This document shows, piece after piece, positions 26,088 through 57,900 of a stretch of 64,000 nucleotides of DNA. The stretch lies in the NCBI GenBank assembly GCA_000004985.1, contig GG738899.1, one strand, 5' to 3'. Numbering within the stretch: the first letter of the stretch is position 1; every line of letters begins with the position of its first letter. This stretch comes from Naegleria gruberi (taxonomy: Eukaryota). The notes beneath the pieces were generated by a model. That model made no database searches. It was not told where the DNA came from and saw nothing but the letters and a program-made list of their open reading frames with translations. A program made the translations under genes and the position numbers.

Positions 26088-29000
26088 ATGACAGAAAAGT
26101 GTAAAACCTATGAGAGAGATGGTCAATGTAATAACGAAAATTGTACACTGATTCATCAGACGTGTCCAAAATTTAGATCACGAGAAGGATGCTCCGAAGG
26201 TTCTTCCTGTCCATTGATTCACAATAGAAAGGTCTTTCAGAAAGATTGCCCTCGTGGTGAGTCATGTAATCAAGGATTGGCATGTAAATATTTCCATCGG
26301 AGAAGTGTTAATTTCACACAACAACAACAAAAACCTCCACTGCAACAACAACATTCTAATCATCAATTTAGGGAGAGAACCAAAGCAAATGAAAGTTCAT
26401 CAAATTTCAATGAAAAGAGAAAGTTTGAAAGAGATTATGATAGACGATCAAATAGAAAATTGGATCAAGTAGAAATTACCAGTAGCAGTAGTAATAGTAG
26501 TAATAGTACTAATTTCGGAAACGTTGATACAGAGGGAGATTATATTATGAAAGAAAATTCCTCTACATCTTTTAATGTGGAAGAAGAAATTGAAATTGTG
26601 GAGGATGTGAAGAAAATTGATTTGCTTCCGAACTCTACTACTAATAACCTATTTGTGTTGAAGGTGGATAAAAGAGATATTTCCGATGAATCTGCAAAGC
26701 TGCTAGGAGATGAAAAATCCATGATACTAATGGTGGAACAAGTAAATGCAGAGTTTGATAAAAAGAAGGAAGAATTGACAAGAAAATTATTAGATATGGT
26801 TGATGATAGAGAAGAACTTGCCACAGAAGGACCAATTATTAGAAATGAACGTAAACTATTGGAGAAACAACAAGCAAATTTCCAGAGACAAGTTCAGCAA
26901 ATTTTTTCACTCAAAGACCAGTATCCACTCTCTACAATTTTACATGCACTCTATAGAGAATGCTGCCGAGGAATGAAGAGCCTTCCTTTGTATGCATTTA
27001 GATCTGATATTATTGCAAGTTTACAAAATAATAATGTCATTATTTGTATTGGTGAAACAGGCTCTGGTAAATCTACACAAATTCCTCAATACATTCTCGA
27101 GGAAGGATATGGAAGATTTGGTAAAGTAGTGTGTACAGAACCTAGAGCAGTTGCTGCAATGTCTCTTACAAAGAGAATTTCTCAGGAAATGTCCATTAAG
27201 GAAAATAGTCTAGTGAGCCATAATTTATATGGAAAGGTTAATAACTGGTCCGATTTACTATTCATGACTGATAGAAAGTTATTGAATGAATTTCAAAATG
27301 ATGCTCTACTCTCAAAATATTCAGTTATCATTGTCGATGAAGCTCACGAAAGAAATCTATGTTCCGACATTCTAATTTCACTATTGAAGGAATGTGTAAT
27401 CAAGAGAAGTCAATCAACAACTCTAAATCCACTCAAATTAATTATAACTTCAGCAACTATTGATGAAAATCTATTTTCAACATTCTTTAATAATTGTCCA
27501 GTTATTAAAGCTCCTGGAAGAATGTATCCAGTGGATGTTTATTGGACTAAACAAAGAAAAGAAGATTACGAACAAGCAGCTGTTCAAAAAGTGTTAGAGA
27601 TTATTTCAAACAACAAATTGGAAGGTGACATTTTGGTATTTCTAAGCTCACCAGACGAAATTGATAGATGTATTAAGAAATTAGAATTTCACTCAAGGGA
27701 AAACAGAGCTCTTTCTCGCTGTTTGATTCTTCCACTCCATGGAGCACTCACGCCTGAAGAACAAGAAAGAGTATTCGAAAGAGTAAATTCTAGAAGAATA
27801 ATCTTTTCAACACGTATTGCTGAAAACTCTGTCACTATTGATGGTGTGAAAATCATTGTGGACACTGGTGTTTCACGAGAAAAATTCTACGATCAACAGA
27901 GAAACATGTCTATTCTCAAAGTGAATAATATTAGTCAAAGTTCTGCCATTCAGAGAAAGGGAAGAGCTGGTAGAACTTCATCAGGTGTATGTTTCAGATT
28001 ATTTTCCGAACAAGACTTCTCCTCAATGAGTGTAAATCCAACTCCAGAAATTTTGAATTCTAATTTAGGATTGACTTTATTGAGATTATTTTCAGCTGGT
28101 GTGAAAAATGTATTGGAATTTGATCTAATTGAAAAACCTAATCTGGAGGATATGAAGAAATCTCTCAAGAATTTAACCGACTTGCAATTTGTGGATGAGA
28201 AGCAAAACATTACACAAATGGGTAAGCAAGCTTCCAAGATGGAAATTGAACCTTCTCTTGCAAGAATGATAATTGAGGGAATTAATTTAGGAATTGGAGA
28301 TGAAATTATTCAACTAGTGTCCATTATGTCATTCTCCAACATGATCTATGCAAAATCTAAGTCTACAGATTATTTAGAAAAAGATATTATGAAAGTCTCA
28401 ACTTCAAAGGAAGGTGGTGATCTGATAACACTTCTTCACATCTTCCAAGGATTTCTTCAAGCAAAAGATAAGCGAAGATATGCAAAAGATGGAAATTTCA
28501 GTCTGAAAACATTGATCCAAGCAGAAGAAACCATGACAGATATTAGGAAGAGATTGAATTTTGAAAGATCTAGCAATAGTGAATCAAAAACAGTTGAATC
28601 CATTCAAGAAATAATTACCAGATGTGTTTGTTGTAGCATGTTTGATAATTTTGCCTATTTTCATGGCATTATTAATGGAAAGAGAGTTTACAAAATTCTC
28701 TCATCAAATATGGAAGCTTTTATTCATGGTTCATCATTTTCTAATTATTCAAGCGAGCCAATTGACTATGTAATATATGGAGAATTAGTCAAGACGGAGA
28801 AACTATTTATGAAAAATGTAACTCCTATTTCTTTAGAGTCAATCAAACCATTCATTACTTTCAATCAATCTCTAAATGTTGTAAAGAAGAAAGTGATATA
28901 TCCACTCACCAGAGGAATATTCGATTGTTTAAATGCCAATAACGGAGCATTGTTAGAATATTTAAGATTGAATATTGGATCAATTGTTGAAATGGACCCA

Positions 29001-31100
29001 GATAGAAACGAACTCGTTGTATATTTATCTGAAGGAGATCAAGTCGAAACAATCCTCAAATATGTTTATGATACAGCTGTTCAAAGATCAAATAATGAAT
29101 TCCTCGAACATCAAGTTGATTCAAAAGTAAGAGCCCTGATTGGAAGAGGAATGCAAGTTGTCAAATTACTTTTTCCAGGAGAGTTTGTAAAATGCAATAT
29201 TCTTAATATCCCAAATATGGATTATAATCACATGAGGGAAGTATTCGAGATGCATAATCTTCCAATACTCGATTGCAAACTATTCTTTGAATTGCCATCC
29301 AATAGGTATGGGACTGTAATTTTTGATTCTCCACAAACATCCAAGAAAGCTCGTGAATTATTTTCTGATTGTCAAGAGTTTCGTATAACCACAAGTGATT
29401 CAACAATAGTTCCAGAAGAAAAAGAAATGAAAAACTATCCACTCAACATTTATTTCTACTCTGAGCACGATGGTAAATGTTTCATCTATTCAGATAACGC
29501 CAATGCCCTAAACATTATTCAATCTCAGTACCTTTATGGTCAAAAGATGTTCCGTAATATTGAAAAGAAAAACCTAAAAATTGCAAACTTATCCTTCACA
29601 CTTGATGAGCACAGAATTAGAGATTTCATTCCAAGAGAACTTCATAACGATATCAGGATAGTTATGAATAGAGATAGACTTGGTAAGGAACAAGAAAATC
29701 AATTTGTTAAAAAGATGGTCAACACTATTAGACCAATGATGGAACTTTTTGGAGAATTGGAAATGTTTGAGTATGTTCCAACCAAAGACCTTGTAGGACA
29801 GTACAAGATATTGGCCAAGTTTACCAACTTGGAAAGTACAATGACAGCAATGAAAAGTTTAAATGGAGCTAGCGTCGGTGACAAGTTTATTTGGGTGGAA
29901 CCTGAATTTACGGACATCATACCATTCCCACTTGATTTGGACACTGATAATTTATTTAGAGAAGAGTTAAGGAAAATGATGAAGGAAATTTTTTCTGTTT
30001 ATGGATGCAGGTCTGGAATGTTTGAAATGAAGAATGGAAGACAAAAGGCTTTGAAAGTTAGAGCAAATTCAGAAGAAGGACTTACTAGAGCAATGGCTAT
30101 CGCTCACAAATATCTAAAGCCATATGTTCTAAAATTGGGAGTATTCGATTTCTCTATTGCATTCAAGAAAAAGTTTAGAATTCTTGAATTGACCAAAAAC
30201 TTCAAAGCTTATATTGACTTTGATATTAAGAATAATAATGTCAATATTTATCAACTCGGAATTAATCAAATGAAAGATATTGTCACTACTATTCTACAAG
30301 AAATTAGAAATTCCAATAAGGACATTATCAAGTTAACTCAATTGAAACCAATTATTGGAAATCAAGGAAAAGTTTTAAAATCTCTGCAAGAAAAATATGG
30401 AGGAAGAATTGATTTTGATTACAAACAAAAAATTATTTCTATTAACAGTTCAGATCAAGAGGAAATCAATAATTTTAAACAGGAAATTAGAAATATATTA
30501 GAAAGCCACCAAACTACCAACGAAGAAATATCTCCAGAAGACTGTCCAATCTGTTATGGACCAAAAGAGAATCCAGTTCTCTTATCGTGTGGCCATTCAC
30601 TTTGTAGAGATTGTTTTATATGTCAACTTGATCAAATGACATTTAATTGTTGTGAATGTGACAGTTTGCTAACCATTCCAGAAATCAATCTTTCTCAGGA
30701 TTTGAATTTAATTGAAAAACAAGCTCAGTATGCCGTTGAAAAATATCTTGAAAGACATCCAAATGATTTTAAACACTGTTCATCAGCTCATTGTTCTGGA
30801 ATTGTCTGCATTGATCAAAGTCAAGTAGCTCACTGTCAATCCTGTAACAAAACTTATTGTATCAAGTGTAATGAACCTCCACACCCTGGATTGGATTGTT
30901 CTAATGAGGAAGAAGCTCTAATCATTGAGTGGAAGAAGGCCAACACAAAACCATGTCCAAAATGTAAAAATAATATTGAGAAGAATGGAGGATGCAATCA
31001 CATAACTTGCTATTATTGTGGAGCTCACTTTTGTTGGTTGTGTGGATTTTTGGCCAATGGGGCTGTTGGTGTTTATACACATTTACAAACGTGTAGATAA
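26088..31100 (+). CDS. CCCH zinc-finger – DEAH-box RNA helicase – RBR (RING1-IBR-RING2) E3 ubiquitin-ligase fusion protein (plant DEAH11/12-like architecture)
   Basis: 1670-aa ORF. N-terminal C-x-C-x-H fingers. Helicase motifs 'GETGSGKSTQIPQ', 'VIIVDEAHERN', 'STRIAENSVTIDGV', 'QRKGRAGR'. C-terminal 'CPICYG..CGHSLCRDCF' (RING1), IBR, and 'CPKCKNNIEKNGGCNHITCYYCGAHFCWLCG' (RING2 catalytic Cys). Confidence 0.85.
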   Translation: MTEKCKTYERDGQCNNENCTLIHQTCPKFRSREGCSEGSSCPLIHNRKVFQKDCPRGESCNQGLACKYFHRRSVNFTQQQQKPPLQQQHSNHQFRERTKANESSSNFNEKRKFERDYDRRSNRKLDQVEITSSSSNSSNSTNFGNVDTEGDYIMKENSSTSFNVEEEIEIVEDVKKIDLLPNSTTNNLFVLKVDKRDISDESAKLLGDEKSMILMVEQVNAEFDKKKEELTRKLLDMVDDREELATEGPIIRNERKLLEKQQANFQRQVQQIFSLKDQYPLSTILHALYRECCRGMKSLPLYAFRSDIIASLQNNNVIICIGETGSGKSTQIPQYILEEGYGRFGKVVCTEPRAVAAMSLTKRISQEMSIKENSLVSHNLYGKVNNWSDLLFMTDRKLLNEFQNDALLSKYSVIIVDEAHERNLCSDILISLLKECVIKRSQSTTLNPLKLIITSATIDENLFSTFFNNCPVIKAPGRMYPVDVYWTKQRKEDYEQAAVQKVLEIISNNKLEGDILVFLSSPDEIDRCIKKLEFHSRENRALSRCLILPLHGALTPEEQERVFERVNSRRIIFSTRIAENSVTIDGVKIIVDTGVSREKFYDQQRNMSILKVNNISQSSAIQRKGRAGRTSSGVCFRLFSEQDFSSMSVNPTPEILNSNLGLTLLRLFSAGVKNVLEFDLIEKPNLEDMKKSLKNLTDLQFVDEKQNITQMGKQASKMEIEPSLARMIIEGINLGIGDEIIQLVSIMSFSNMIYAKSKSTDYLEKDIMKVSTSKEGGDLITLLHIFQGFLQAKDKRRYAKDGNFSLKTLIQAEETMTDIRKRLNFERSSNSESKTVESIQEIITRCVCCSMFDNFAYFHGIINGKRVYKILSSNMEAFIHGSSFSNYSSEPIDYVIYGELVKTEKLFMKNVTPISLESIKPFITFNQSLNVVKKKVIYPLTRGIFDCLNANNGALLEYLRLNIGSIVEMDPDRNELVVYLSEGDQVETILKYVYDTAVQRSNNEFLEHQVDSKVRALIGRGMQVVKLLFPGEFVKCNILNIPNMDYNHMREVFEMHNLPILDCKLFFELPSNRYGTVIFDSPQTSKKARELFSDCQEFRITTSDSTIVPEEKEMKNYPLNIYFYSEHDGKCFIYSDNANALNIIQSQYLYGQKMFRNIEKKNLKIANLSFTLDEHRIRDFIPRELHNDIRIVMNRDRLGKEQENQFVKKMVNTIRPMMELFGELEMFEYVPTKDLVGQYKILAKFTNLESTMTAMKSLNGASVGDKFIWVEPEFTDIIPFPLDLDTDNLFREELRKMMKEIFSVYGCRSGMFEMKNGRQKALKVRANSEEGLTRAMAIAHKYLKPYVLKLGVFDFSIAFKKKFRILELTKNFKAYIDFDIKNNNVNIYQLGINQMKDIVTTILQEIRNSNKDIIKLTQLKPIIGNQGKVLKSLQEKYGGRIDFDYKQKIISINSSDQEEINNFKQEIRNILESHQTTNEEISPEDCPICYGPKENPVLLSCGHSLCRDCFICQLDQMTFNCCECDSLLTIPEINLSQDLNLIEKQAQYAVEKYLERHPNDFKHCSSAHCSGIVCIDQSQVAHCQSCNKTYCIKCNEPPHPGLDCSNEEEALIIEWKKANTKPCPKCKNNIEKNGGCNHITCYYCGAHFCWLCGFLANGAVGVYTHLQTCR

Positions 31101-33044: not shown

Positions 33045-34172
33045 ATGTCGCAAGAATATTCAGCGATCGTGCTAGATAATGGCTCTTGCTCCATCAAAGC
33101 AGGTTTTTCAGGATGTGAGAATCCACAAGTAGTTTTTCCATCACTCATTGCTTCTCCTTTAAAATCCAAAGAATCTGAAAATATCAAAGAAATATACCTT
33201 GTGGGAGATGAAGCTAAAATTGACAGTAGAAAGAATGTTATGGTCAGATATCCAATAGAACATGGAGTAGTGACGAATTGGGAGGGGATGGAACAGATTT
33301 GGCGTCATGTTTTTAGTCAATTACAGGTGGATTGTGAAAATCATCCTGTTTTATTGACTCAACCTCCTTGTAATCCAAAACAAAATAGAGAAAAGATGAC
33401 TGAAATAATGTTCGAAACATTTAGAATACCATCCATGTATGTTTCTATTCCTGCTGTATTGTCCTTGTTTGCAACTGGGAGGACAACTGGAATAGTTTTA
33501 GATTCTGGAGATGGTGCGACGAATATTGTTCCAATTTTTGAATCACATGCTTTAGAATATGCTGTTAGGAGATTGGATTGGGCAGGTCGTGATTTGGATT
33601 ATTATATGTCTAGAATTCTAAGTGAAAGAGGGTTCTCATTCTTTACACGAGAGGAAATGGACATTGTGAGGGAAATTAAGGAAAAACTGTGTTATGTTGC
33701 ATTGGATTTTGATAAAGAAATGGAAAATACATCAAATAGCTTGGATGTTGATTATGAATTACCAGATGGTAACATTCTCACGATAGGAAATGAAAGGTTT
33801 CGATGCCCAGAAGTGTTTTTCAAACCACACTTAATAGGAATTGAAGAACAAGGCATTCATGAGGTGATAATTAATTCAATTGGAAAGTGTGATGTGGATA
33901 TAGGACATTTGAACTTGTATGGGAATGTAGTTCTTTCAGGAGGATCCACAATGTTTACAGGAATTGGAAAGAGGCTACAAAAGGAATTATCTGAACTAGC
34001 TCCTTACTCTATGAAAATTTCGGTTGTTGATTCCCTAGGGTTTGATAGGAAATTTTTGTCATGGATTGGAGGTAGTATCCTATCATCAATGACTGCATTT
34101 CAATCTGATTGGATAGTATCAAGAGAATATAAAGAAGTTGGAAGTAGCATCGTTCACAGAAAGTGTTTCTAA
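33045..34172 (+). CDS. actin-family protein (divergent actin / actin-related protein)
   Basis: 375-aa ORF that aligns end to end with actin ('[17 protein letters not shown]', '[24 protein letters not shown]', '[16 protein letters not shown]', '[19 protein letters not shown]', '[13 protein letters not shown]') but carries many substitutions. Confidence 0.85.
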
Positions 34173-41748: not shown

Positions 41749-41867
41749 GGCTACGGCCATATCACGATTCATGCACCTCATCCCGTCCGATTTGAGAAGT
41801 TAAGCATCGTCGAGCCACATCAGTACTGAGGTTGGAGACAACTTGGGAACCTGTGGTGCTGTAGTCT
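41749..41867 (+). rRNA. 5S ribosomal RNA gene (copy A)
   Basis: GGCTACGGCCATA...CCGTCCGATTTGAGAAGTTAAGC...GGTTGGAGACAACTTGGGAACCTGTGGTGCTGTAGTC aligns position by position with eukaryotic 5S rRNA. Helix I pairs 5' GGCTACGGC with 3' GCTGTAGTC. A T6 run follows immediately. Confidence 0.9.
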
Positions 41868-41873
41868 TTTTTA
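41868..41873 (+). terminator. Pol III oligo-T terminator of 5S copy A
   Basis: TTTTTT directly after the 5S 3' end. Confidence 0.7.
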
Positions 41874-41971
41874 TTTTTTCTCTATTTCTATTTTTCTGTG
41901 ATATAAAGCACCTTAATTAATATCAGTTGTGGACTAGATCTATTAGCAACTTATTTTCTTCTTGAATAACT

Positions 41972-42043
41972 TCCCGTGTAGTCCAATGGCTAGGATACCT
42001 GGCTTTCACCCAGGAGGTCCGGGTTCAATTCCCGGCATGGGAG
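41972..42043 (+). tRNA. tRNA-Glu (anticodon TTC), copy 1
   Basis: TCCCGTGTAGTCCAATGGCTAGGATACCTGGCTTTCACCCAGGAGGTCCGGGTTCAATTCCCGGCATGGGAG: 7-bp acceptor stem, anticodon loop CTTTCAC, T-arm GGTTCAATTCC. Confidence 0.9.
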
Positions 42044-42117
42044 GATAATTTTGCAAAAGATAATTTATTTGGTAACCTTTTATTAATGGAAAGGGTTATT
42101 GAAATGGAACAGTTGAC

Positions 42118-42612
42118 TTAATCAATAATGGTTTTCTTTAACTTTTCTTCAATTTCTTCCTTTTGCTTTTTCACACTTTCAGCTTGTTGTTTCAAACTTT
42201 CAATTCGATTATTGAGTTGATCACTGATGGTTCCTCCCAATAACAACACAGTTTCATTTTGTGCATTCATTTCTTTCTGAACCATTTCTAATTCTATTAA
42301 CATGTATTCTAATTGCATAGACATCTCTTGGAAGTCTTCAGCTTTTCTCTTTTTCATTTCTATCATTTCAATGAATTGTTTCTTGACATTTTCAATTTCG
42401 AATAATTCTTGTGATGCTTGTTCAACTCTATAAGCTTTTTCTCCGATCACTTTCGAATAATTCTTGATCAAGGTTCTCCAAAAGGTTTCTGATTGAACCA
42501 ATTGTTCATGAATTTTTTTGTTGATCGAAAGAATATTTCCCAAATGTTTAACGGAGAGAATGGAAAATATTTCAATTTGCAACTCGGAGGGAAGATCAAC
42601 AAAGTTTGACAT
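42118..42612 (-). CDS. small F-box-like coiled-coil protein
   Basis: 164-aa ORF. N-terminus 'LPSELQIEIFSILSVKHLGNILSINKKIHEQL' is F-box-like; the remainder is predicted coiled coil. Confidence 0.5.
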   Translation of the reverse strand: MSNFVDLPSELQIEIFSILSVKHLGNILSINKKIHEQLVQSETFWRTLIKNYSKVIGEKAYRVEQASQELFEIENVKKQFIEMIEMKKRKAEDFQEMSMQLEYMLIELEMVQKEMNAQNETVLLLGGTISDQLNNRIESLKQQAESVKKQKEEIEEKLKKTIID

Positions 42613-43115
42613 TTTTTAAAATTGTTATTGGATGAGATTTTTGAAATTGCATAATATCATGATTTGATGAAGGTAAATAATTTATTGTTGTCATTCTTCC
42701 GATCAAAGCTTTGATTTCATATTAGATTTTATCTATCTTAAAGATTTTGCTTTGTGTTTTCTGGCTGATTCCGAAGGAGAATTAAATAATTTATTTAATT
42801 CATTGTAAAAAAGAAGAATATTAATATTGCAATCAGACTGAATTTGAACCACTCTATTTTTAAATTATACAAAGCAACACAAAGAATATGAAAATGAATG
42901 TGCATATTTGAAATTGAAGATGAGGGTCATTTTCGTAAGTGAATCAGATTCAAATTCAAACACAAGTCTGAAAGTGAAGCTGTGGTGGAGGTTCAAATTG
43001 AAAACAAGCTATTTAAACAGCTCTCGAGATATTCTCACTCCATCAAACCAAACAAAAAAAACAAGTTAACAAACAGCTCATTCAGCTCAATATTCAAATA
43101 CAGTAAATTTAAAAT

Positions 43116-45680
43116 ATGGTCAAGTTCAGTAAAGAAATACTCGAAAGGCTCTTACTCGACAGTAACAAGATTCGTAACATTAGTATTATTGCTCACGTTG
43201 ATCATGGTAAATCAACACTCACTGATCAATTGGCTTTAGCAGCTGGTTTAGTGGATGAAGATGCTGCAGGTGAGAAGAGAGTTTGCGACGTCGATAAGAA
43301 TGAAATTGAAAAGGGTATTACCATTAAATCAACAAGTTTGAGTATGGTATTGGAAAATCCAGACAAGGAGAATGATCATCATTTGGTTAATTTGATCGAT
43401 TGTCCAGGTCACATTGATTTCTCATCTGAAGTTAGTACAGCTTTGAGAATTACTGATGGTGCAGTGTTGATTGTTGATGCTGCTGAAGGTTGTAGAGGTC
43501 AAACTGAAACAGTAATTAGACAATCTCTTCAAGAAAGAATTCGTCCAGTTCTCTTCATTAATAAGGTTGACCGTTTGATTGAAGAAATGCAATTTACTGA
43601 AGAAGAAAGTTATCAAAACTTTTTAAGAATTATCGAGTCTGTGAATGCTCTATTATCAACTTATTCTGATGAGTCAGTTTCTGTTGATCCAGTTGACTGT
43701 AACATTGCTTTTGGATCAGGTAAGATGGGTTGGGCTTTCACTTTGGAGCAATTCGCTCAATTATATAGCAAGAAGTTTAAACTTCCTGTTGAGAAGGTTA
43801 TTAACAAATTATGGGGTGAAAATTATTATGATCACTCAACTAAGAAGTTTACCACTGAACCTTATTCATCGACAAGTGGTCAACAATTGAAACACACTTT
43901 CTGTGAATTCATTTTAGAACCTATTTTCAAGATTTTCAAGTTGGTTAGAGAACATCAAATTTCGAGTGAAGGTATTTTGCCAACAGATTTGGAAAATATC
44001 ATTAGTGCATTGTCTATACCTCTGACGAAAGAAGAAAAGAGAAAGGAGCCGAAACTTTTAGCTAAATCAATCATGAGAAAGTTCCTACCAGCTCACAAAC
44101 CTCTAGTTCAAATGATTATTAACCATTTACCTTCTCCTAAGGAAGCTAAAAAGGTCAGGTATGATAATCTCTACACTGGTGAAGATTTGACAGATCCATA
44201 CGCTACTGGTATTAAGGAATGTGATCCGAATGCACCACTGGTTGTCTATGTCAGTAAGATGGTACCTATGCACTCTAATACTAGCTCTAGTATGAGTAAT
44301 AATGTTGGTCGTTTTATTGCTTTAGCTCGTATCTTCTCTGGCAGTTTGACTCAATCAACTAAGGTAAGAATTCTGGGTCCTAACTATGATCCAATTGCTA
44401 AGAAAGATGTTTTCCATACAAGCATTCAAAGATTGTTAGTCATGGTTGGTAAAAATACTGAAAGCATCACTCAAGCTTCTTGTGGTGCCATCGTCGGTAT
44501 TGTTGGTCTTGACAAGTACATTATCAAATCATGTACATTGACAGAAGAAGGACAAGTTGCATGTATGCCAATTAAGAATATGAAATACTCTGTGAGTCCT
44601 GTTGTTCAAATGGGAGTTGAGCCAGCCAATCCAGCTGATTTATCTCGATTTGTTGAAGGTTTGAAACGTCTCGTTCAAAGTGATCCTCTATTGGAATGTA
44701 AGCAAAATGATAGTGGTCAACATATTCTAGGAACAGCAGGTGAATTGCATTTGGAAATTTGTTTAAAGAATTTGGAAGAAGAATATGCAAGAGGAATTCA
44801 AATTAAAAAGTCTCCTCCTGTTGTCACTTTCCACGAAACAGTTTCAAATAAGAATGGAGACATGGTCATGGCCAGAAGTGCAAACGGTCACAATCGTTTA
44901 TACATGCAAGCTGAACCAATCAGTGAGGAATTGATTGAAATGATTAAGGAAGGTCAATTGCCAATGGATGATCAAAATAAGAGAGCAAAGATTTTAGAAA
45001 TTGACTTTGAATGGGATCCTAGCATAACAAAGAGAATTTGGAGTTTTGGACCTGAAGCTGATAAGGGTAGTAACATTTTGGTTAATGCAACCAAGTCAGT
45101 TGACTATATTAATGAAATTCAACAATATGTTGTCACTAGTTTCCAACAAAGCAGTTCTTCAGGAGGTTTATGTGATGAAGCAATGAGAGGTGTTTTATTC
45201 AAATTTAATGATTGTAATCTTCATGCAGATTCTATCCATCGTGGAGCTGGTCAAATTCTCCAAGCAACATCACGTGTCATGACTGCTAGTCAATTGAGAG
45301 CTGATCCAAAGTTAGTTGAACCAATGTATCTTGTTGAAGTTCAATGTCCTCAATCAGTGATGGGTTCTGTCTATAGTGTCATTTCCAATAGAAGAGGTGT
45401 TATCAAATCTACTGAAATGGTAATTGGTACTCCTCTCGTTAGTATTACAGGTAATTTACCTGTGCTGGAAAGTTTCGGTTTAACAGAAGAGTTGAGAGGT
45501 GTGACTCAAGGACAAGCTTTCCCTCAATGCAGTTTCAGTCATTGGAAAGTAATGGAAGACAATGTTTATGATCCTCAATCTAAAGTTCACAAGCTCATCA
45601 AATCTATCAGAAAGAGAAAGGGTCTTAAGGAAGATATACCACTCTACACAGATTACTGTGATGCAATGCCTAAACAATAA
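43116..45680 (+). CDS. elongation factor 2 family GTPase, divergent eEF2 paralog
   Basis: 854-aa intron-less ORF. G-motifs 'AHVDHGKST', 'DCPGHIDFSSEVSTALRITDG', 'NKVDR'. The diphthamide-loop 'HADSIHRGAGQI' and C-terminus '...SIRKRKGLKEDIPLYTDYCD' match eEF2, but the overall sequence is much more diverged than canonical eEF2. Confidence 0.8.
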   Translation: MVKFSKEILERLLLDSNKIRNISIIAHVDHGKSTLTDQLALAAGLVDEDAAGEKRVCDVDKNEIEKGITIKSTSLSMVLENPDKENDHHLVNLIDCPGHIDFSSEVSTALRITDGAVLIVDAAEGCRGQTETVIRQSLQERIRPVLFINKVDRLIEEMQFTEEESYQNFLRIIESVNALLSTYSDESVSVDPVDCNIAFGSGKMGWAFTLEQFAQLYSKKFKLPVEKVINKLWGENYYDHSTKKFTTEPYSSTSGQQLKHTFCEFILEPIFKIFKLVREHQISSEGILPTDLENIISALSIPLTKEEKRKEPKLLAKSIMRKFLPAHKPLVQMIINHLPSPKEAKKVRYDNLYTGEDLTDPYATGIKECDPNAPLVVYVSKMVPMHSNTSSSMSNNVGRFIALARIFSGSLTQSTKVRILGPNYDPIAKKDVFHTSIQRLLVMVGKNTESITQASCGAIVGIVGLDKYIIKSCTLTEEGQVACMPIKNMKYSVSPVVQMGVEPANPADLSRFVEGLKRLVQSDPLLECKQNDSGQHILGTAGELHLEICLKNLEEEYARGIQIKKSPPVVTFHETVSNKNGDMVMARSANGHNRLYMQAEPISEELIEMIKEGQLPMDDQNKRAKILEIDFEWDPSITKRIWSFGPEADKGSNILVNATKSVDYINEIQQYVVTSFQQSSSSGGLCDEAMRGVLFKFNDCNLHADSIHRGAGQILQATSRVMTASQLRADPKLVEPMYLVEVQCPQSVMGSVYSVISNRRGVIKSTEMVIGTPLVSITGNLPVLESFGLTEELRGVTQGQAFPQCSFSHWKVMEDNVYDPQSKVHKLIKSIRKRKGLKEDIPLYTDYCDAMPKQ

Positions 45681-46019
45681 GAGTTTTAGCATTTAGTAAT
45701 AAATTGCCTTTTTCTCCAATCTTTCAACAGTACATAACAATCGGGGATGATTCTTAACAAGTTTGAATCAATATCTATCAATATCTATCAATATCTCAAA
45801 TTGAATCAATCTTCAATAACCATATGGTAAAGTATTATTTTTTATTTTAACAAAAATTCAGTAAGGATTTTGAGGCGCTTGTTACCATTGTTGATTTTCT
45901 TGATGACTGCTTTCTATCATTGATTAGCGTTTTCAGAGGCGATACTAGAAATGATATTGAAGACAATGATTTATAATAAGGAAACAATACAAAAAGTTGA
46001 AGGAGAAACAAGCAAAAGT

Positions 46020-46100
46020 TGCAGAAGGTGGGATTTGAACCCACGAAGCTTGCGCAGTAGAACTTGAGTCTACCCCCTTTGACCACTCGGGAACCCCTGC
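46020..46100 (-). tRNA. tRNA-Leu (anticodon CAA), class II with long variable arm
   Basis: Reverse complement GCAGGGGTTCCCGAGTGGTCAAAGGGGGTAGACTCAAGTTCTACTGCGCAAGCTTCGTGGGTTCAAATCCCACCTTCTGCA. D-loop GAGTGGTCAAA, anticodon loop CTCAAGT, T-arm GTGGGTTCAAATCCCAC. The acceptor stem has two G-U pairs. Confidence 0.7.
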
Positions 46101-47303
46101 TTCATATAATCTTATAAACCTGGTTGTTCACTTTGAATATACCAACATTCTGTATTTTCAAGTTAGCCCATTGCTCACCTTAGCATCTTATTTTCATTAT
46201 CTTCCACAATATTCTTTATCATCTTTATTCGCCTTGAAACCAATCCTTAATTTATTCTCCCAGCTTATTCAACTATTTTCTTGAATTGAATTTCCAATTT
46301 TCCCAATTTTTTAACCATAACTTTTCCTCGCAACATTTCACACTTTCACAACCAATATAACATCATTGAGGATGCAAGATTGAAAAAACCATTGACTGTA
46401 CTTCTACAGGATCTTTTCTGTAGGAATACATAAACTCGACTTTTTTGAGTCAATCTGACCTTTGAGGTTAACCAAGATGAAGACTCTGTAGTCACATATC
46501 TTGAGCATGATATCGAACTGGAAACATGCTTCGTTGTAGGTTTCCTCGTTCATAGATGATTGCTGCATTCCTTACCAGCCATGGTTTGTGAATGGGGGAT
46601 TTGTGAACATGCAGATTGGTACCTTAAACTTTTTATCAATTAAAAGAAAAATATTACAACTATGCCCGAGAGCTGCCAATTAAACTCTATAACAAAACTT
46701 TCCTTTTATTATTAATCAACATGGCCCGTCGTATCTTCATTGCACTGTATTGGAGTTAGGGTTTTATTTTGTCTTGGAAAGCAAATATTTGAAGACTCAA
46801 ATTCGAAATTTGAAGGTTTATTGATCAACCACAAGTTTCTCTTTCTAAATAGATAAAATTCAAAGGTGATAAATATATGGTCACGTTGCAAGTTCTTCTA
46901 AACAATAACTTACTGAACCAACAATCAATAGATTCGTTGCCTTCACTGTTCATACAGTCAAAGACTGTAGCGGGATTGTCGCCATATTCCTGGCAGGCTT
47001 CCCGTCTAATTTACCAATTGAACAATATCACAACATATTCCCTTTTACTGTATTCCTGTAATAAGGGCAGTACATTGATGTAAAAGCTTTCTTAAAAGTT
47101 ATCAGGTTTCTCCTGTTGATTATTGTTTGATAAGAAATAATTACCATTAAGGCAAATTCATTTAAAATTACAATCCATTAGTTCCTGACAAATAACTATG
47201 CATGAATTTGTGACTTATGGCCAAACTGTAGGATAAAATCATTTTGTTAAAAAAAATGAAACATTTGGTGCAGATTTATATTGCAGAAATTAGGTTAATT
47301 GAT

Positions 47304-47421
47304 GGCTACGGCCATATCACGATGAATGCACCTCATCCCGTCCGATTTGAGAAGTTAAGCATCGTCGAGCCACATCAGTACTGAGGTTGGAGACAACTTG
47401 GGAACCTGTGGTGCTGTAGTC
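47304..47421 (+). rRNA. 5S ribosomal RNA gene (copy B)
   Basis: Identical to copy A apart from ~3 substitutions (cacgatGAatgc vs cacgatTCatgc). Followed by T7. Confidence 0.9.
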
Positions 47422-47428
47422 TTTTTTT
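47422..47428 (+). terminator. Pol III oligo-T terminator of 5S copy B
   Basis: TTTTTTT directly after the 5S 3' end. Confidence 0.7.
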
Positions 47429-47459
47429 CATATCAAAATTTGTTTTATTAAGCTTGCTA

Positions 47460-49901
47460 TTAAAGTAAGTCTTGAAGTGAATCACTGCAATTCTCCTCAG
47501 GCAACAATTGCAACAATCGTTTAGACCTTTCGAATAAATTTAGAACAATTGGCGAATCACTCCAAACATTAGCCAATCTTTCACACAAGCAATACAATTG
47601 GAAATAGTGCTGAGAGAACAACAAATCCCTTACCAGCAACAAATCCTTTTCCATCTTCTTCTCATATTCAGAGGCCTCATTCCTGAATGCTACTAAATTG
47701 TAAATGCAAGTTGAATTACTCTTTCCTCTCAATTTGAGTAGATCAACAAAGTGAAAGATAAATTCCTCCCTCACCTTATCAACAATCTCACCACTCACAA
47801 GGATGGAACCAAAGTTTTGAGCGAGTGATTGTAATCTTAATGCAATGTTACACTCGTCACCAATTACTGTAAATGACATTCTGCTCTTACTGCCCAAACA
47901 ACCAACAAGCATTTCACCACATGTAATTCCAATAGAAATATCCAATTGAATACCCATTAGAATCTTCCATTTAGAGTTCAAATCCTCAATTACTTCCATG
48001 CATTCAATGGCAGTTTTACAAGCTCTTGATTCATGATTTGCACATCTGAATGATTTTTCATTCCAAAATACCATTACAGTACCCTCAATGAATTTATCAA
48101 TAATTCCACAATGGGCCTCAATGACCTGTGATATGGAGCTATAATATTCTGTAATGATTCGAATAAATGCTGTAGTTTCGGTCTTTTCAGAAAGTGTTGC
48201 AAAATTATTGATACCACAATACAGAACTGTCATGCTCGGTTCTAATTTCATACCAATTTTACCGTACTCTTGCTTATTTGAAACAATCATCTTGGCAATA
48301 ATGTGTGGAACATACTTGCTGAATGCAAATATTCCTCTTTGGGTGATTTGAATATTTTCGTCCATTTCCTTGATTTCACTGAAAATTGTAACATGTTTCT
48401 TGTATGGAGTTTCTAAACCTTTGAATGAAATGAGATGATTCATTTGCTTGGTAATGTCTATCAGTGGTTGATTAATTGATTGAACAACGCATAAAACAAT
48501 TAAGGTTTCTAATACAAAAAAAATGATAAATAAAATTACAGAAACAACACCAGAAGAAATGACCTCGGAGAAATATGTCTTCTCCAAACTCGTCGTGACC
48601 ACAGTGCATGTCAGATTGTAGGTATCCCTCACTGTTGAAACTTCTACAATTTTCCCCTTATAATGAAATATGTGAGATTCGTTTGCATTCAGATTCAAGT
48701 TGTTTAAATCAGAGCGATGAATTTCTTCAGAAATATCATCAATAGATGGATCGTTCTCACTGCTTCTTGCAAAAATACCTCCAGTTCCATTGATAATGAA
48801 TGAACTGTATAGAAGAGCTGTGGATGAGTTCGCAACATTGACATTTTGAATTTTGAATTCCAAAGCAACTATTCCAAATAAATAATCATTATGTGCACCC
48901 TTCATACGCTCTAATTCCTCAACTTGAATGGCATGAAGAGTGGAATTACCTCCTGACAATGTATAATTTCTTACTGGAATATGACTATATATGGGATAGA
49001 CAAAAAAAACTGAATATAAACCCTCCTCGTTCAAGGAAGCACTTGTCCAACATGGTCCAGCTACCTTCTTCGACTGCCTAATCTCTCTGTACCAATCACA
49101 ATCGGTTGGTGATGAATTAATTGACTGGTTTTCTGCCTTGCTGTCAACCAAATCTAAATCATCATATGACAACAGGTGTGAATTCGTATCTCTTATTCTA
49201 TACGTTAAACGAATATGCTCCTCTTCTGAAGAATTATTTGGAAACTTTCCAGTTTCGAACAAATTATGATTTTTAAATATCAAGTAATAATCGTCAAATC
49301 TTACAAATTGAATGGAAACTAGTTGAGTACTGGTAAGCATTCTGTCAGTGGCTCTTATTACTCGCATCCATTCAATTTGTTTGTCCAATTCCATCATTTT
49401 CCCAATAAATAAATTGTAAAACATCAAGTCAACCAGATTTCTAGCAGAATTGTGAATTTTCACAACTCTCATTCTCAATCTGTACGTAGTTTCCCATCTT
49501 TCATATCCACTTGTGCTTTTGTAAATCTCAGATCCACTTGAGAAGAGCAAAACGAAAGAAGCCAAAATTCCAAAGAATGTTTGAAACACAAACAAGACGA
49601 AAATTAAATTCATAATTCGGAAACCATATCTAGTGCAGTTTAGTCCACATTCTCCACATTTTGTTTGATGGTTCTTCTTCTTTGATTTCTTTAGAGACAA
49701 TATTTGACTTTTTGATTCAGTTTCGTTTGTTTCTTCTTTTGCATTGTAGCGATGAATTATTGGAAACTCATTACCATCATCGCTATCAAAATCAGATGAG
49801 AACGCATCCATGAAATCTAATCTAGACTGTTTTCTCATTTTCCCTCCTCCAATAATTGATTCTCTTCTGTTTTGATGTTTTCCATTCGTGTGTGAAAACA
49901 T
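47460..49901 (-). CDS. membrane class III adenylyl/guanylyl cyclase with extracellular sensor domain between two TM helices
   Basis: 813-aa ORF. TM1 'LIFVLFVFQTFFGILASFVLLF', a ~300-aa extracytoplasmic region, TM2 'VVSVILFIIFFVLETLIVLCVV', then a class III cyclase domain ('...FTVIGDECNIALRLQS...'). The topology is reminiscent of the dictyostelid osmosensing cyclase ACG and of bacterial sensor cyclases. Confidence 0.7.
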   Translation of the reverse strand: MFSHTNGKHQNRRESIIGGGKMRKQSRLDFMDAFSSDFDSDDGNEFPIIHRYNAKEETNETESKSQILSLKKSKKKNHQTKCGECGLNCTRYGFRIMNLIFVLFVFQTFFGILASFVLLFSSGSEIYKSTSGYERWETTYRLRMRVVKIHNSARNLVDLMFYNLFIGKMMELDKQIEWMRVIRATDRMLTSTQLVSIQFVRFDDYYLIFKNHNLFETGKFPNNSSEEEHIRLTYRIRDTNSHLLSYDDLDLVDSKAENQSINSSPTDCDWYREIRQSKKVAGPCWTSASLNEEGLYSVFFVYPIYSHIPVRNYTLSGGNSTLHAIQVEELERMKGAHNDYLFGIVALEFKIQNVNVANSSTALLYSSFIINGTGGIFARSSENDPSIDDISEEIHRSDLNNLNLNANESHIFHYKGKIVEVSTVRDTYNLTCTVVTTSLEKTYFSEVISSGVVSVILFIIFFVLETLIVLCVVQSINQPLIDITKQMNHLISFKGLETPYKKHVTIFSEIKEMDENIQITQRGIFAFSKYVPHIIAKMIVSNKQEYGKIGMKLEPSMTVLYCGINNFATLSEKTETTAFIRIITEYYSSISQVIEAHCGIIDKFIEGTVMVFWNEKSFRCANHESRACKTAIECMEVIEDLNSKWKILMGIQLDISIGITCGEMLVGCLGSKSRMSFTVIGDECNIALRLQSLAQNFGSILVSGEIVDKVREEFIFHFVDLLKLRGKSNSTCIYNLVAFRNEASEYEKKMEKDLLLVRDLLFSQHYFQLYCLCERLANVWSDSPIVLNLFERSKRLLQLLPEENCSDSLQDLL

Positions 49902-50165
49902 CTTTTTGTGAATTGTATTTTGTAAAAATTTCTTTTCTTATTGGAGTAATTCATCATTTTAGGATAGAGTTCATTGTTTAGAGTTTAAACCTATTTAACA
50001 ATATTCCATATAACACTAGATTCTTATGGATGTTCAATTAGTATTAATGCAGCTTTGGGAATTAGGTTCTTAGAATAGAAATTGGTTAGCACGTTTTAAA
50101 GAGAACATTGTAATAAAATAATTAATTCCGTGTATATATGGAAACTATTTTCATAATGAATAACA

Positions 50166-50237
50166 TCCCGTGTAGTCCAATGGCTAGGATACCTGGCTTT
50201 CACCCAGGAGGTCCGGGTTCAATTCCCGGCATGGGAG
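50166..50237 (+). tRNA. tRNA-Glu (anticodon TTC), copy 2
   Basis: 72/72 identical to copy 1. Shared immediate flanks: 'gaataac' upstream and 'gataattttgc.aagataatt' downstream. Confidence 0.9.
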
Positions 50238-54915: not shown

Positions 54916-57900
54916 TTGGATGATTTTTGGAATATTTTCATGCTGGTTTTATTTGTATCTTTTATAACCTATATAATTATCTATCAGGTATTAGATAGAT
55001 TGGGATTGAGTTGTAAAATTTGCTGTTCTTTCTGTAGATGCAGTGGTGGACTTTTCATTTCAGAAATTGATGGAGACTTCGATTGGAAACCAAATGAATC
55101 TCTATTAGAAAGGATACAAATACAGAATGTACTCTTTCTTGCTTACAATTTTACAGAATATCTCAAGAATATGGATCATACATTTTCTGCTCCGCAATTA
55201 TTCCAAAAATTTTACAAGAATGAAATTAATGTTGAAGGTTTAAATCAATTTTGTAGATATGAAGGCCCAAAAAGATCAACATTTGTAAGAATACTTGAAT
55301 GGTTGCTTCCAGATCCAAAAAGCTTGTTTCCCTATATGGAAACTAAATATATTAGCAACTTAAATTCAATTCCCATGACAACTTGTAATTGGATAAGACA
55401 TTTAATTTGCCATTTCAATATTTATCAGATTTTCCTCAGATTGTTGCTATTTACTATCCTTCTTAACGGAACTCCACTTATTAATTTATTAATTTACATT
55501 GACTTTTATTTTAGTTTAGGATATAAGGCAATTCAATTAATTTACATTCTCTCTTCATTTATTCCAAGAAATGGACAAAGTTTTATTGGAATGATTATAA
55601 GATTTATTAGATTCTTCGGATGGATTCAAATTGTGGAAACCATTGCCATGATTTTAGTCATTTCATTTTTTAATCATGAAAACGAAACTGTGTTACTCTA
55701 TGAATTTAATGGAGAAAGATATAATTTTATTCGATTCTTCAACTATGACGGTTTTGATATCGTGTATTCTCACAATTCTGTTATCATTCTTGTAGTCACT
55801 GTTGCTTTTGAGATTGTGAAAGAGTTTACAAAATTTGTACTTTTTTGGAAAACTAGTTTAGAAGAAAGAGGAAACAAGGTTTTGAAAATTCTTTACAATA
55901 TTTCCTTTTTCCAAACCTATCTCTTTATTCATGTACTAGGATCTGTGCTGTGGTTCAGTAGATTATTTAGTGGACTATTATCAATTAATTCGATTTGTAT
56001 TGCAAATATTGGACAAGATGAAACTATGTGTGAAATTGTGATTTTACCTTTCGTATTTTGTTTTGGGTTTATGTGCACGATTGCTATTTCTTCGTATATC
56101 TATACTTTGCTTATTATAACCATTTCGAATTTAATAACTGTTTTCGAGGGAATTAGAATTGGAAAATCGAAACCTAAAAAGGTTAAGAAACCAAAAACAA
56201 AATCTATTCAGTTGACGGAAATGGCCATAGAACGCTTGATTTTGGATGAGACACAACCACAGCAGCAAGATCACATTTTGAAAGTTTGTTATCCATCTGA
56301 TTCTCAACCAACGATTGAAAATTTAGTCAACCTGGACACACAAATTGAAAAGAGTTTTCAAGATTTTTCTGCAGCAGAAAGAGATTATTTGCAATGTATT
56401 TACAAATCTGGTCTCCAGAGATTAATTCCCTTCCAAAAGCACAAGAAAACCACGCTTGACATTGTTGTGGTTCTTTGTGCTGAACAAGTTTATTCCAAAG
56501 ATGATGAAAGTAGAACGAAATTTAAATGGATATCAGATAGATTCAAACTTGATACACTCAATAGAACACAAGATGAAATAAGAAAGATCATGTCTTTAAA
56601 GGAGCAAACCATTTACAAAACTGTGAAAGGTCTTGCGGATTTCAAGAAGGGAATGGAAGATTACTATTCTATTTTGGATTGCAATGAGGAAGACAGAATT
56701 TCAGTGAATTATTATCTTTGTTTACAAAAATATCATGGGCTAGATGAAAACTACTTCCCAAAGATCGAAGAGGACATGTCAGAAATCCAGAAAAAGAGAA
56801 TTCAATCAGAAATTGACTTTACCAACGAAATTAATGAATTATGTATGGAATTTCCATTCATTAGAAGAATATATGAAAAGCAAATATCTGATCAGTTTAT
56901 CAAGATTGAACATCTTGACAGCTATTTCAACAACTGCCAAATACTAGACTCTGTCAAACTTCAAAGGAAAATCAATTGTAAATTTTATGGAGAAGGTAAA
57001 TCCATGAACCAACTGAACAGTGCCATGTTCCTCAAGGGAAAATACATGCTCTCCCTCGACTCCAACATGGACGCTTACTATTTCGAAGGTATCAAATTCC
57101 CATGCTTGATGCAAGAAGTCATGAACTCGAAAAGTCACATTTTTGGAATGAGAACTCACACCTACACTGCTTTTACTTCTCAGGTTGGAAAGAACATGGC
57201 CTGTGCTGAGCATGTCTTTGTGGCCACATGTTACAAAGCCATGTGTCTGCTCGGCAGTAGATTGCACTATGGAAATGCCGATATTTTAGATAGAGAATTC
57301 TTTATTGAGAAGGGTTTATTTGCAGATGCGGATCGATATCTGAATTTGAGTGAGGATGTGTTTCTTGGAAAGAGATGTCTTAAATTTGGAGGAATTATTC
57401 GATACTCTGAGGGTGTTACGTTTGGTAAGGGAAGAGAAACTAACCTGAAGGAATCTGCTGGGTTCTATACAAAGATTGCTGGAGGTGCTGCCATGCAGTC
57501 GAGTTCAAGTATCGAATACGAATTGAATAGTTCATTGCCTCTTTGTATGTTGATGCCACTCTAGTGTTGGATTCTTCTCCTTGCATTTATTTATTGACAT
57601 TTCGATCATTCTAGCTCCTATTTTATACGTCTTGTTGAGCATCTTTGGGGTTTCGTATACTACATTGGATACTTTGAATTCATCATTTGCAAAAATTTGG
57701 GTTCTTCCATTCTACCTTGTCACTTTACTTCCACTCGTGCTGGAAAGCTTAGTTCAGGGCTACAGCTATGCTAACTGGGTTGATTACCTTCTCTCTTTCC
57801 CATTCTTTGCTTTCATTGACAGATTAATGTCATACAGTTATTTGACAGGAACATTTTTAGAGAAGGTGACCTATGTATCAACCGCCAGAGAAACTGGCCA

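Follow-up and report, generated by a model that had tools for sequence, protein, structure and literature searches.

As a rule, there is one eukaryotic elongation factor 2 (eEF2), an essential and extremely conserved protein that advances the ribosome on its mRNA. Two paralogs in its family, EFL1/Ria1, the GTPase of 60S maturation, and Snu114/EFTUD2, the GTPase of the U5 small nuclear ribonucleoprotein, share with it the logic of a ribosome-dependent GTPase and a similar fold, respectively. Outside of the eukaryotic nuclear lineage, pairs such as EF-G1/EF-G2, spdEFG1/2, and mtEFG1/mtEFG2 combine a conserved main translocase with a faster-evolving second copy that has intact GTPase motifs and is often subfunctionalized (Atkinson 2015, PMC4342817). 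Belonging to another domain of life and having arisen by independent duplication, these bacterial and organellar pairs serve as an analogy only. The same survey (BMC Genomics 16:78) reported several highly divergent versions of eEF1A and eEF2 in Naegleria gruberi, gave 9 eEF2-class and 13 EF1A-class matches in its supplementary table, and presented the set as a species-specific massive duplication without further analysis. Our literature search found no published further analysis of the Naegleria eEF2 paralogs. Described here is one of these genes, which lies in a 64,000-nucleotide stretch of N. gruberi contig GG738899.1 (hereafter referred to as the window). Whereas the N. gruberi genes are those of the 2015 survey, the main divergent type is shown here to be common to N. 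fowleri, N. lovaniensis, Willaertia, and Acrasis.

The gene occupies the following position:

43116..45680, + strand: divergent eEF2 paralog, complete intron-less open reading frame (ORF) of 854 amino acids plus stop, confirmed by exact-sequence look-up

The ORF call runs uninterrupted from ATG to stop at exactly these positions, and the 854-residue translation is an exact match to EFC39469.1/XP_002672213.1 (NAEGRDRAFT_52377, UniProt D2VUK9), encoded on a 331-kb scaffold of N. gruberi NEG-M. The organism is thus a heterolobosean and not a dictyostelid, the source assumed in a first-pass annotation made from the window sequence. The window gene is real and intact, and it encodes a divergent eEF2-family member. 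Its existence is already known from GenBank, UniProt, and the listing of Atkinson 2015, and we count the feature as such because the gene is in public databases and the gene multiplicity is published.

A separate canonical eEF2 is encoded in N. gruberi, namely EFC41809/XP_002674553.1 (D2VMW0), which is nearly identical to the older GenBank entry Q2MM00. The window protein shows 48% identity to it and 47-50% to any canonical eEF2 compared. The canonical N. gruberi protein displays identities of 90% to its orthologs in N. fowleri and N. lovaniensis, 80% in Willaertia, 70% in Acrasis, and 66% in Acanthamoeba, and canonical eEF2s from different supergroups share 66-70% identity among themselves. 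Canonical orthologs are characterized by the motifs EGVCVQTET, GSGLHGW, ESGEH, and ESFGF and by at least 60% identity across eukaryotes; the window protein falls outside of this group and differs at eight of eight signature positions. There is next to no chance that the window gene is itself the housekeeping eEF2, evolving rapidly in this lineage. Such an assignment has in its favor only the GenBank/UniProt label "elongation factor 2" on the sister copies, and it is countered by the existence of XP_002674553.1, with its 66-70% identity to the Acanthamoeba and Acrasis canonical proteins, its 90% identity to the N. fowleri ortholog, and its strong codon bias. The first-pass annotation had called the gene a divergent eEF2 paralog distinct from the housekeeping factor, and this description stands, given that the gene is not the only one of the eEF2 class in the genome.

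All EF-G/EF2 Pfam domains were found in the window protein, each above the gathering threshold. The domains and motifs, listed by window coordinates, are as follows:

43167..43775, + strand: core G domain, Pfam GTP_EFTU, residues 18-220 (Pfam, 1.9e-50)
43191..43217, + strand: G1 or P-loop AHVDHGKST, residues 26-34, intact (alignment/motif check)
43278..43331, + strand: remodeled switch I, RVCDVD (residues 55-60) and EKGITIKS (residues 65-72) (alignment)
43398..43412, + strand: G3 or switch II DCPGH, residues 95-99, catalytic His 99 intact (alignment)
43485..43511, + strand: subfamily signature EGCRGQTET, residues 124-132, for EGVCVQTET of nearly all canonical eEF2 (alignment)
43560..43571, + strand: G4 NKVD, residues 149-152, intact (motif check)
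43713..43733, + strand: G5 region GSGKMGW, residues 200-206, with subfamily-specific K203/M204 for canonical L-H (alignment)
43947..44006, + strand: expanded, poorly conserved part of the eukaryote/archaea-type G'' subdomain, residues 278-297 (alignment)
44268..44306, + strand: Ser/Asn-rich insertion MHSNTSSSMSNNV, residues 385-397, at the start of domain II (alignment)
44313..44543, + strand: domain II, residues 400-476 (Pfam)
44598..44804, + strand: domain III (EFG_III), residues 495-563, including subfamily-specific Q535 (canonical E) (Pfam)
44877..44903, + strand: first domain-IV tip loop SANGHNRLY, residues 588-596 (canonical SPNKHNRLY) (alignment)
44970..45302, + strand: domain IV, Pfam EFG_IV, residues 619-729 (Pfam)
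45222..45254, + strand: diphthamide loop HADSIHRGAGQ, residues 703-713, with the His 708 codon at 45237-45239 (alignment)
45312..45569, + strand: domain V (EFG_C), residues 733-818, containing LESFGLTEELR with subfamily-specific L789 (Pfam, alignment)
45612..45677, + strand: eEF2-type C-terminal tail KRKGLKEDIPLYTDYCDAMPKQ, residues 833-854 (alignment)

As can be seen, the window protein shares with canonical eEF2 (yeast EFT1/EFT2, human EEF2, and XP_002674553.1) the five domains plus G'' subdomain and the length class, and it keeps all G motifs, the catalytic histidine, both domain-IV tip loops, the histidine at the diphthamide position, and the C-terminal tail. The hallmarks cited in the first-pass annotation, namely the diphthamide loop and the C-terminal KRKGLKEDIPLYTDYCD tail (pattern KRKGLKE..P..D), are indeed present. 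His 708 lies in the loop H-x-D-x-x-H-R-x-x-x-Q and is the same residue in 60 of 60 aligned sequences; it is presumably the diphthamide acceptor, the modification being putative. His 703, Asp 705, His 708, Arg 709, and Gln 713 are constant both in the paralog subfamily and in canonical eEF2. The G'' region, residues 221 to 345 approximately, aligns with its eukaryotic counterpart and is longer than in the archaeal sequence.

Canonical eEF2 also provides the nearest matches in sequence and structure. The best matches among Protein Data Bank (PDB) chains are to eEF2 over the full length (query residues 1-850 against target residues 1-844, E = 8e-250), followed by Snu114 (8e-147), archaeal EF2 (about 1e-120), and EFL1 (2e-113). 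A model of the window protein was calculated with AlphaFold2 from an input alignment of 60 sequences. Its mean predicted local distance difference test (pLDDT) score is 85.7, and the sole stretch of three or more residues with values below 50 is that from 387 to 395. The top Foldseek matches of the model are ribosome-bound eEF2 structures, with E = 3e-93.

An identity as EFL1/Ria1 is rejected. EFL1 carries a large insertion, for a total of about 1000-1100 residues, and lacks the diphthamide histidine, whereas the window protein is 854 residues long, contains no match to PF25118, retains His 708, matches eEF2 far better than EFL1, and groups with eEF2 in the tree described below. The first-pass annotation had considered an EFL1-like role and was right to dismiss it. 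Snu114/EFTUD2 is likewise rejected: the window protein lacks the acidic N-terminal extension of ∼110 residues (the alignment to the Snu114 chain starts at about target residue 116 but at query residue 6), it falls outside of the Snu114 clade, its E-value is poorer by the figures given above, and its identity to Snu114 is 30-33% as opposed to 40-46% to eEF2. The Foldseek template modeling (TM) score of 0.8 to Snu114 arises because the AlphaFold2 model adopts a compact domain arrangement.

The divergence from canonical N. gruberi eEF2 is spread over the whole protein. Identities are 53% for the G core, 39% for the G'' subdomain, 38% for domain II, 56% for domain III, 45% for domain IV, and 49% for domain V. 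The first-pass annotation had placed the divergence in the G domain and domain II; this is correct for domain II and G'', but the core G domain is among the best conserved regions. Eight positions show fixed differences between the subfamily and canonical eEF2 (K66, C126, R127, K203, M204, K467, Q535, and L789), and the window protein has all of them. Five of the eight fall in G-domain motifs, specifically switch I, the loop after switch II, and the residues adjoining G5. In addition, the sequence RVCDVD at residues 55-60 stands in place of the canonical RFTDTR, such that both conserved threonines are gone. This rewriting of switch I to RV[CL]D[VI]D extends to the Naegleria and Willaertia paralogs, and the 13-residue insertion MHSNTSSSMSNNV is confined to the same branch. 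In the adjoining EKGITIKS, the subfamily-specific Lys 66 precedes GITIKS (residues 67-72), and the Mg-coordinating Thr 69 is kept.

Note that canonical eEF2 of Naegleria and Willaertia (P0211, P0209, P0212, and P0121) is itself slightly unusual. It has RFMDTR for RFTDTR, where the methionine occupies the position of the human Thr 56 kinase site, HRGAGQ for HRGGGQ, and PVLESFNF for PV[NM]ESFGF. Escape from eEF2 kinase was rejected as the key difference of the paralog, for the canonical Naegleria protein also lacks the first threonine and the basal paralogs keep it (R[FY]TDNR).

The closest annotated relatives of the window protein are found in N. lovaniensis (65% identity), N. fowleri (65%), Willaertia magna (58%), and Acrasis kona (50%), and about ten environmental sequence clusters also belong to the subfamily. 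No poly(A) was seen at the ends of the 2.6- and 3.3-kb environmental contigs, which are roughly gene-sized. Each of these named lineages also has a canonical eEF2, as does N. gruberi, so that the paralog is found alongside a true ortholog. The motif EGCR[GSTA]QTET is common to all subfamily members, and EGVCVQTET occurs in essentially all canonical eEF2s; within the motif, Cys 126 and Arg 127 are constant in 15 of 15 aligned members of the paralog clade. Also unchanged in 15 of 15 members are Asp 95, Pro 97, Gly 98, His 99, Asn 149, Lys 150, Asp 152, Asn 590, Asn 593, His 703, Asp 705, His 708, Arg 709, and Gln 713.

A profile built from these 15 members was searched against 5.8 billion proteins and returned the same member set, with no member below 1378 bits and no canonical eEF2 above 1292 bits. 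The exceptions to this gap are three over-long, apparently composite eEF2 records (P0005, P0008, and P0011). No named subfamily member from outside of Heterolobosea was retrieved by this search. In a neighbor-joining (NJ) tree with bootstrap, in which archaeal EF2, EFL1, and Snu114 served as outgroups, the subfamily is monophyletic with 100% support. Its internal branching is that of the species tree, the Naegleria species joining first, followed by Willaertia, and then Acrasis with the environmental sequences. The phylogeny with canonical eEF2, EFL1, and Snu114 that the first-pass annotation had proposed as a check places the paralog with eEF2, apart from Snu114, EFL1, and archaeal EF2, at a bootstrap of 81% (68-99% over four site subsets).

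A library of representatives at 50% identity (P0222-P0371) contains very many highly divergent eEF2-like proteins, with identities of 33-45%, and in many of these, G motifs or the diphthamide loop have disappeared. Divergent eEF2 paralogs may thus be common in uncultured eukaryotes. One of them, P0286 (900 residues), carries the similar motif EGCKSQTET, yet it branches apart from the heterolobosean clade (4% bootstrap).

With respect to the age of the subfamily, the NJ tree calculated over all sites places it outside of a monophyletic canonical eEF2 with 95-99% bootstrap. Removal of the fastest sites reduces the support for this position from 95% to 70%, 32%, and finally 8%, while the paralog and canonical eEF2 remain united against the outgroups. 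At 14 sites where the canonical and paralog consensus differ, the outgroup residues correspond to the canonical state 46 times and to the paralog state 11 times, and the paralog states are thus derived. The deep position therefore looks like long-branch attraction, and an origin before the last eukaryotic common ancestor was rejected. Only one candidate synapomorphy was found between the paralog and heterolobosean canonical eEF2. Judged by the distribution over taxa, the duplication is best placed inside Heterolobosea or at its base, before Naegleria and Acrasis separated. By the sequences compared, the subfamily is accordingly older than N. gruberi as a species.

In N. gruberi the gene has been amplified. 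The cluster formed at 90% identity around the window protein holds three more full-length NEG-M proteins (EFC43897, EFC40138, and EFC40215), the latter two of which are encoded together on one 500-kb scaffold; the window contains one copy. The four full-length copies are ∼99% identical, and their differences are confined to ten of 854 residues (256, 281, 289, 297, 345, 351, 444, 504, 780, and 850). A 246-residue fragment, EFC35836, encoded on a 12-kb scaffold, belongs to the same cluster. As it shares Asn 780 and Ala 850 with the window copy, its scaffold may be a redundant haplotype of the window locus. The "duplicate" of the first-pass annotation is thus a paralog as stated, but not a lone one, being one of four near-identical copies in a subfamily that predates the divergence of Naegleria and Acrasis.

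A further N. gruberi protein, EFC48983/XP_002681727.1 (P0007), is a derivative of the paralog with 60% identity. Both switch I (GITIKS) and DxxGH have been lost, the latter replaced by DCPAF, whereas SPNKHNRLY, HADSIHRGAGQ, and the C-terminal tail are kept. The environmental protein P0221 (contig L006:116-2620) falls in the same 90%-identity cluster as P0007, of which it is a near-identical copy. On these motifs, P0007 is a candidate GTPase-dead, eEF2-like ribosome binder.

Selection was measured by the Nei-Gojobori method between N. fowleri and N. lovaniensis. For the paralog, dN is 0.059, dS is 0.61, and dN/dS (ω) is 0.097. The corresponding values for canonical eEF2 are 0.010, 0.25, and 0.040. 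Across the paralog, ω ranges from 0.03 to 0.16 in every 100-codon block. The paralog is clearly under purifying selection, while its amino-acid changes build up about 6-fold faster than those of canonical eEF2. The rapid evolution suspected in the first-pass annotation is hence borne out, and the dN/dS comparison of orthologs that it called for indicates that the gene is not merely decaying. The effective number of codons (ENC) is 32 for canonical eEF2 and 37-45 for the paralogs. The strong codon bias and depressed dS of the canonical genes are as expected for very highly expressed genes.

These values bear upon whether the window gene is a redundant duplicate drifting toward loss, and non-functional or nearly so. 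The high protein divergence, a codon bias weaker than that of the canonical gene, and the clear degeneration of the GTPase motifs in P0007 could be taken in that sense. Such a reading is strongly disfavored and has only a very slim chance of being correct, however, in light of an ω of about 0.10, the intact full-length ORFs in five named species, the retention of the gene since before the Naegleria-Acrasis split, the invariance of the catalytic and tip-loop residues, and the maintenance of four near-identical intact copies in N. gruberi.

What, then, does the protein do? We consider it fairly probable, judging from the sequence, that it is an active, lower-abundance alternative or auxiliary ribosomal translocase working like eEF2. 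It would be a ribosome-dependent GTPase that binds the GTPase-associated center of the 80S ribosome, inserts its domain-IV tip, with a presumably diphthamide-modified His 708, into the decoding center, and promotes tRNA-mRNA translocation at a lower abundance than canonical eEF2. Binding to the GTPase center and probing of the decoding center are suggested by the kept motifs, His 99, and tip loops, the purifying selection, the retention in five named species, and the four intact copies. The difference from canonical eEF2 would most likely lie in GTPase activation, nucleotide kinetics, or regulation rather than in the chemistry of translocation, since the subfamily changes (K66, C126/R127, and K203/M204) surround the nucleotide pocket and switch I is rewritten in Naegleria and Willaertia. 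We infer the specialized translocase role, already raised in the first-pass annotation, on this basis. The division of labor between translocation and recycling seen with EF-G pairs is not an obvious model because ribosome recycling in eukaryotes is accomplished by ABCE1.

The lower abundance is suggested by codon usage. The codon adaptation index (CAI), which is only a proxy for expression, was referred to the codon usage of canonical eEF2 from N. fowleri and N. lovaniensis; it is 0.45 for the window gene as compared to 0.29-0.54 for the other ORFs of the window. For the N. fowleri paralog it is 0.39, with 0.28-0.34 for its neighbors and 0.75 for the canonical gene. The paralog values thus match or slightly exceed those of the surrounding genes and fall well short of the canonical value, which suggests that expression is moderate and far below that of a housekeeping factor.

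Several observations weigh against a working alternative translocase. One is the indirect nature of the CAI just mentioned, and another is that a full-text search by accession and the Naegleria transcriptome supplements yielded no expression, proteomic, or biochemical data for the window gene. The domain-IV tip varies more than that of canonical eEF2: the proline of SPNKHN is an alanine in the window protein, the tip-loop histidine is a leucine in the Acrasis group, and the residues beside the diphthamide histidine vary, as in HRNAGQ of N. fowleri. This variability could reflect a relaxed or altered role in the decoding center. Likewise, the heavy rewriting of switch I in the Naegleria branch might impair ribosome-stimulated GTPase activity. 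Finally, P0007, if correctly read from its motifs, would show that the scaffold is usable without GTP hydrolysis.

A rival reading is that the protein has been neofunctionalized as a ribosome-associated factor other than a general translocase. Such a protein could have a hibernation role, sitting in the A site and GTPase center of idle 80S ribosomes when the cells encyst or starve, or could act in rescue or quality control. It would account for the ∼6-fold faster protein evolution and the altered switch I and domain-IV tip, and P0007 and P0221, which lack switch I and DxxGH and yet have SPNKHNRLY and HADSIHRGAGQ, fit a binder that does not hydrolyze GTP. Moreover, eEF2 is present in many solved hibernating ribosomes, as judged from structure titles among the Foldseek matches. 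We nevertheless regard this explanation as unlikely, although worth keeping in mind. The window protein retains every GTPase motif and the catalytic histidine, its sequence gives no sign of an added domain for binding a new partner, selection is even along the gene, and in other eukaryotes the hibernation role is already filled by canonical eEF2.

The variability of the diphthamide loop raises another issue, namely that the paralog could be an arms-race product, either a quickly evolving backup that keeps translation going or a decoy that absorbs toxins when canonical eEF2 is attacked by diphthamide-directed ADP-ribosylating toxins or sordarin-type inhibitors from bacterial prey or fungi. In Chinese hamster ovary (CHO) and yeast eEF2, a change of glycine to arginine two residues past the diphthamide histidine blocks the modification and confers toxin resistance. 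The N. fowleri and N. lovaniensis paralogs have an asparagine at that very position, and the loop varies within the subfamily (HADSIHRGAGQ, HPDSNHRNAGQ, HNDSSHRGALQ, and HTDSSHRGARQ), whereas in canonical eEF2 it is nearly fixed as H[AST]DA[IV]HRGGGQ. Naegleria species are, in addition, bacterivores. Direct evidence for such a function is lacking, however, and the idea appears improbable. The window copy and the canonical eEF2 of N. gruberi agree in HRGAGQ, leaving no difference at the toxin-critical positions; evolution is fastest in the G'' subdomain and domain II rather than at the toxin or sordarin sites; and dN/dS is about 0.1 in each 100-codon block, none of which shows an elevated ω. 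The reading that we favor remains that of an alternative or auxiliary translocase.

The surroundings of the gene in the window contain the following features:

41749..41867, + strand: 5S rRNA gene, upstream copy (100 bits; repeat D1)
41972..42043, + strand: tRNA-Glu(TTC)
42118-42612, - strand: F-box-like gene
46020..46100, - strand: tRNA-Leu(CAA)
46392..46620, + strand: U3 small nucleolar RNA gene (76.7 bits)
47304..47422, + strand: 5S rRNA gene, downstream copy, 93% identical to the upstream copy
47460-49901, - strand: adenylate/guanylate-cyclase gene
50166..50237, + strand: second tRNA-Glu(TTC)

The 8.5 kb from 41749 to 50237 thus interleave two 5S rRNA genes, two tRNA-Glu genes, one tRNA-Leu gene, and the U3 gene with three protein genes, those for the F-box-like protein, the eEF2 paralog, and the cyclase. 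The RNA polymerase III gene cluster in which the first-pass annotation had placed the paralog is therefore real, with two 5S rRNA, three tRNA, and one U3 gene. The members of the first 5S/tRNA-Glu pair are about 100 nucleotides apart, and those of the second pair are split by the cyclase gene. No small-RNA genes were found near the paralog at four related loci, namely those of N. fowleri, N. lovaniensis, Willaertia, and the environmental contig encoding P0013, and the linkage thus appears local to the window copy and is probably incidental. The only other small-RNA linkage seen is on a 3.3-kb environmental contig (L007), where a tRNA at 210-282 lies 383 nucleotides upstream of a paralog (P0002, 65% identical). 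The N. fowleri and N. lovaniensis paralog loci are syntenic with each other, and no homologs of the genes flanking the N. fowleri paralog were found in the window or at the Willaertia locus.

Other ORFs of the window include one of 1670 residues at 26088-31100 (+ strand), in which a DEAH-type helicase (DEAD, Helicase_C, HA2, and OB_NTP_bind) is followed by a C-terminal IBR/RING-between-RING region, with a weak KH match; this combination of helicase and E3-ligase domains is unusual. The actin-family ORF at 33045-34172 (+ strand; Pfam Actin, 7e-121) displays weak codon bias (ENC 44, CAI 0.29) and probably encodes a divergent actin or actin-related paralog rather than the main actin. The ORF at 54916-57564 (+ strand) contains part of a 1,3-beta-glucan synthase domain, and at the window edge an SRP54 gene is represented by its 3' part (63283-63993, - strand).

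In summary terms, the window gene is a catalogued eEF2-family member with a plausible alternative-translocase role. The practical value of the finding is limited, given that the gene is already in databases, that the gene multiplicity is published, and that the proposed role is read from the sequence. What is added here is that the divergent type is common across Heterolobosea, carries a diagnostic signature, and is held by purifying selection, and that in N. gruberi it has been amplified to four copies and has given rise to a candidate GTPase-dead derivative. A bolder view, which we hold to be quite doubtful, is that Heterolobosea keep a fourth functional class of EF2-family GTPase beside eEF2, EFL1, and Snu114, with a rewired GTPase center and a job distinct from bulk elongation, from which the GTPase-dead derivative of N. 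gruberi would have evolved. If so, this class might carry out translocation on particular ribosome states at certain life stages or under stress, occupy hibernating ribosomes in cysts, or keep translation going as a toxin-insensitive backup. In a stronger variant the lineage would predate the heterolobosean radiation, and the NJ position over the full sites that supports this variant is the one that falls from 95% to 8% without the fast sites.

A second eEF2 class that has been long kept, evolving fast and yet constrained, represents a natural experiment on which parts of a translocase can change. Those parts are switch I, the loop after switch II, the surroundings of G5, and the flanks of the diphthamide histidine, while the core is kept. 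For Naegleria, the genus of the pathogen N. fowleri, the paralog family may provide condition-specific control of elongation.

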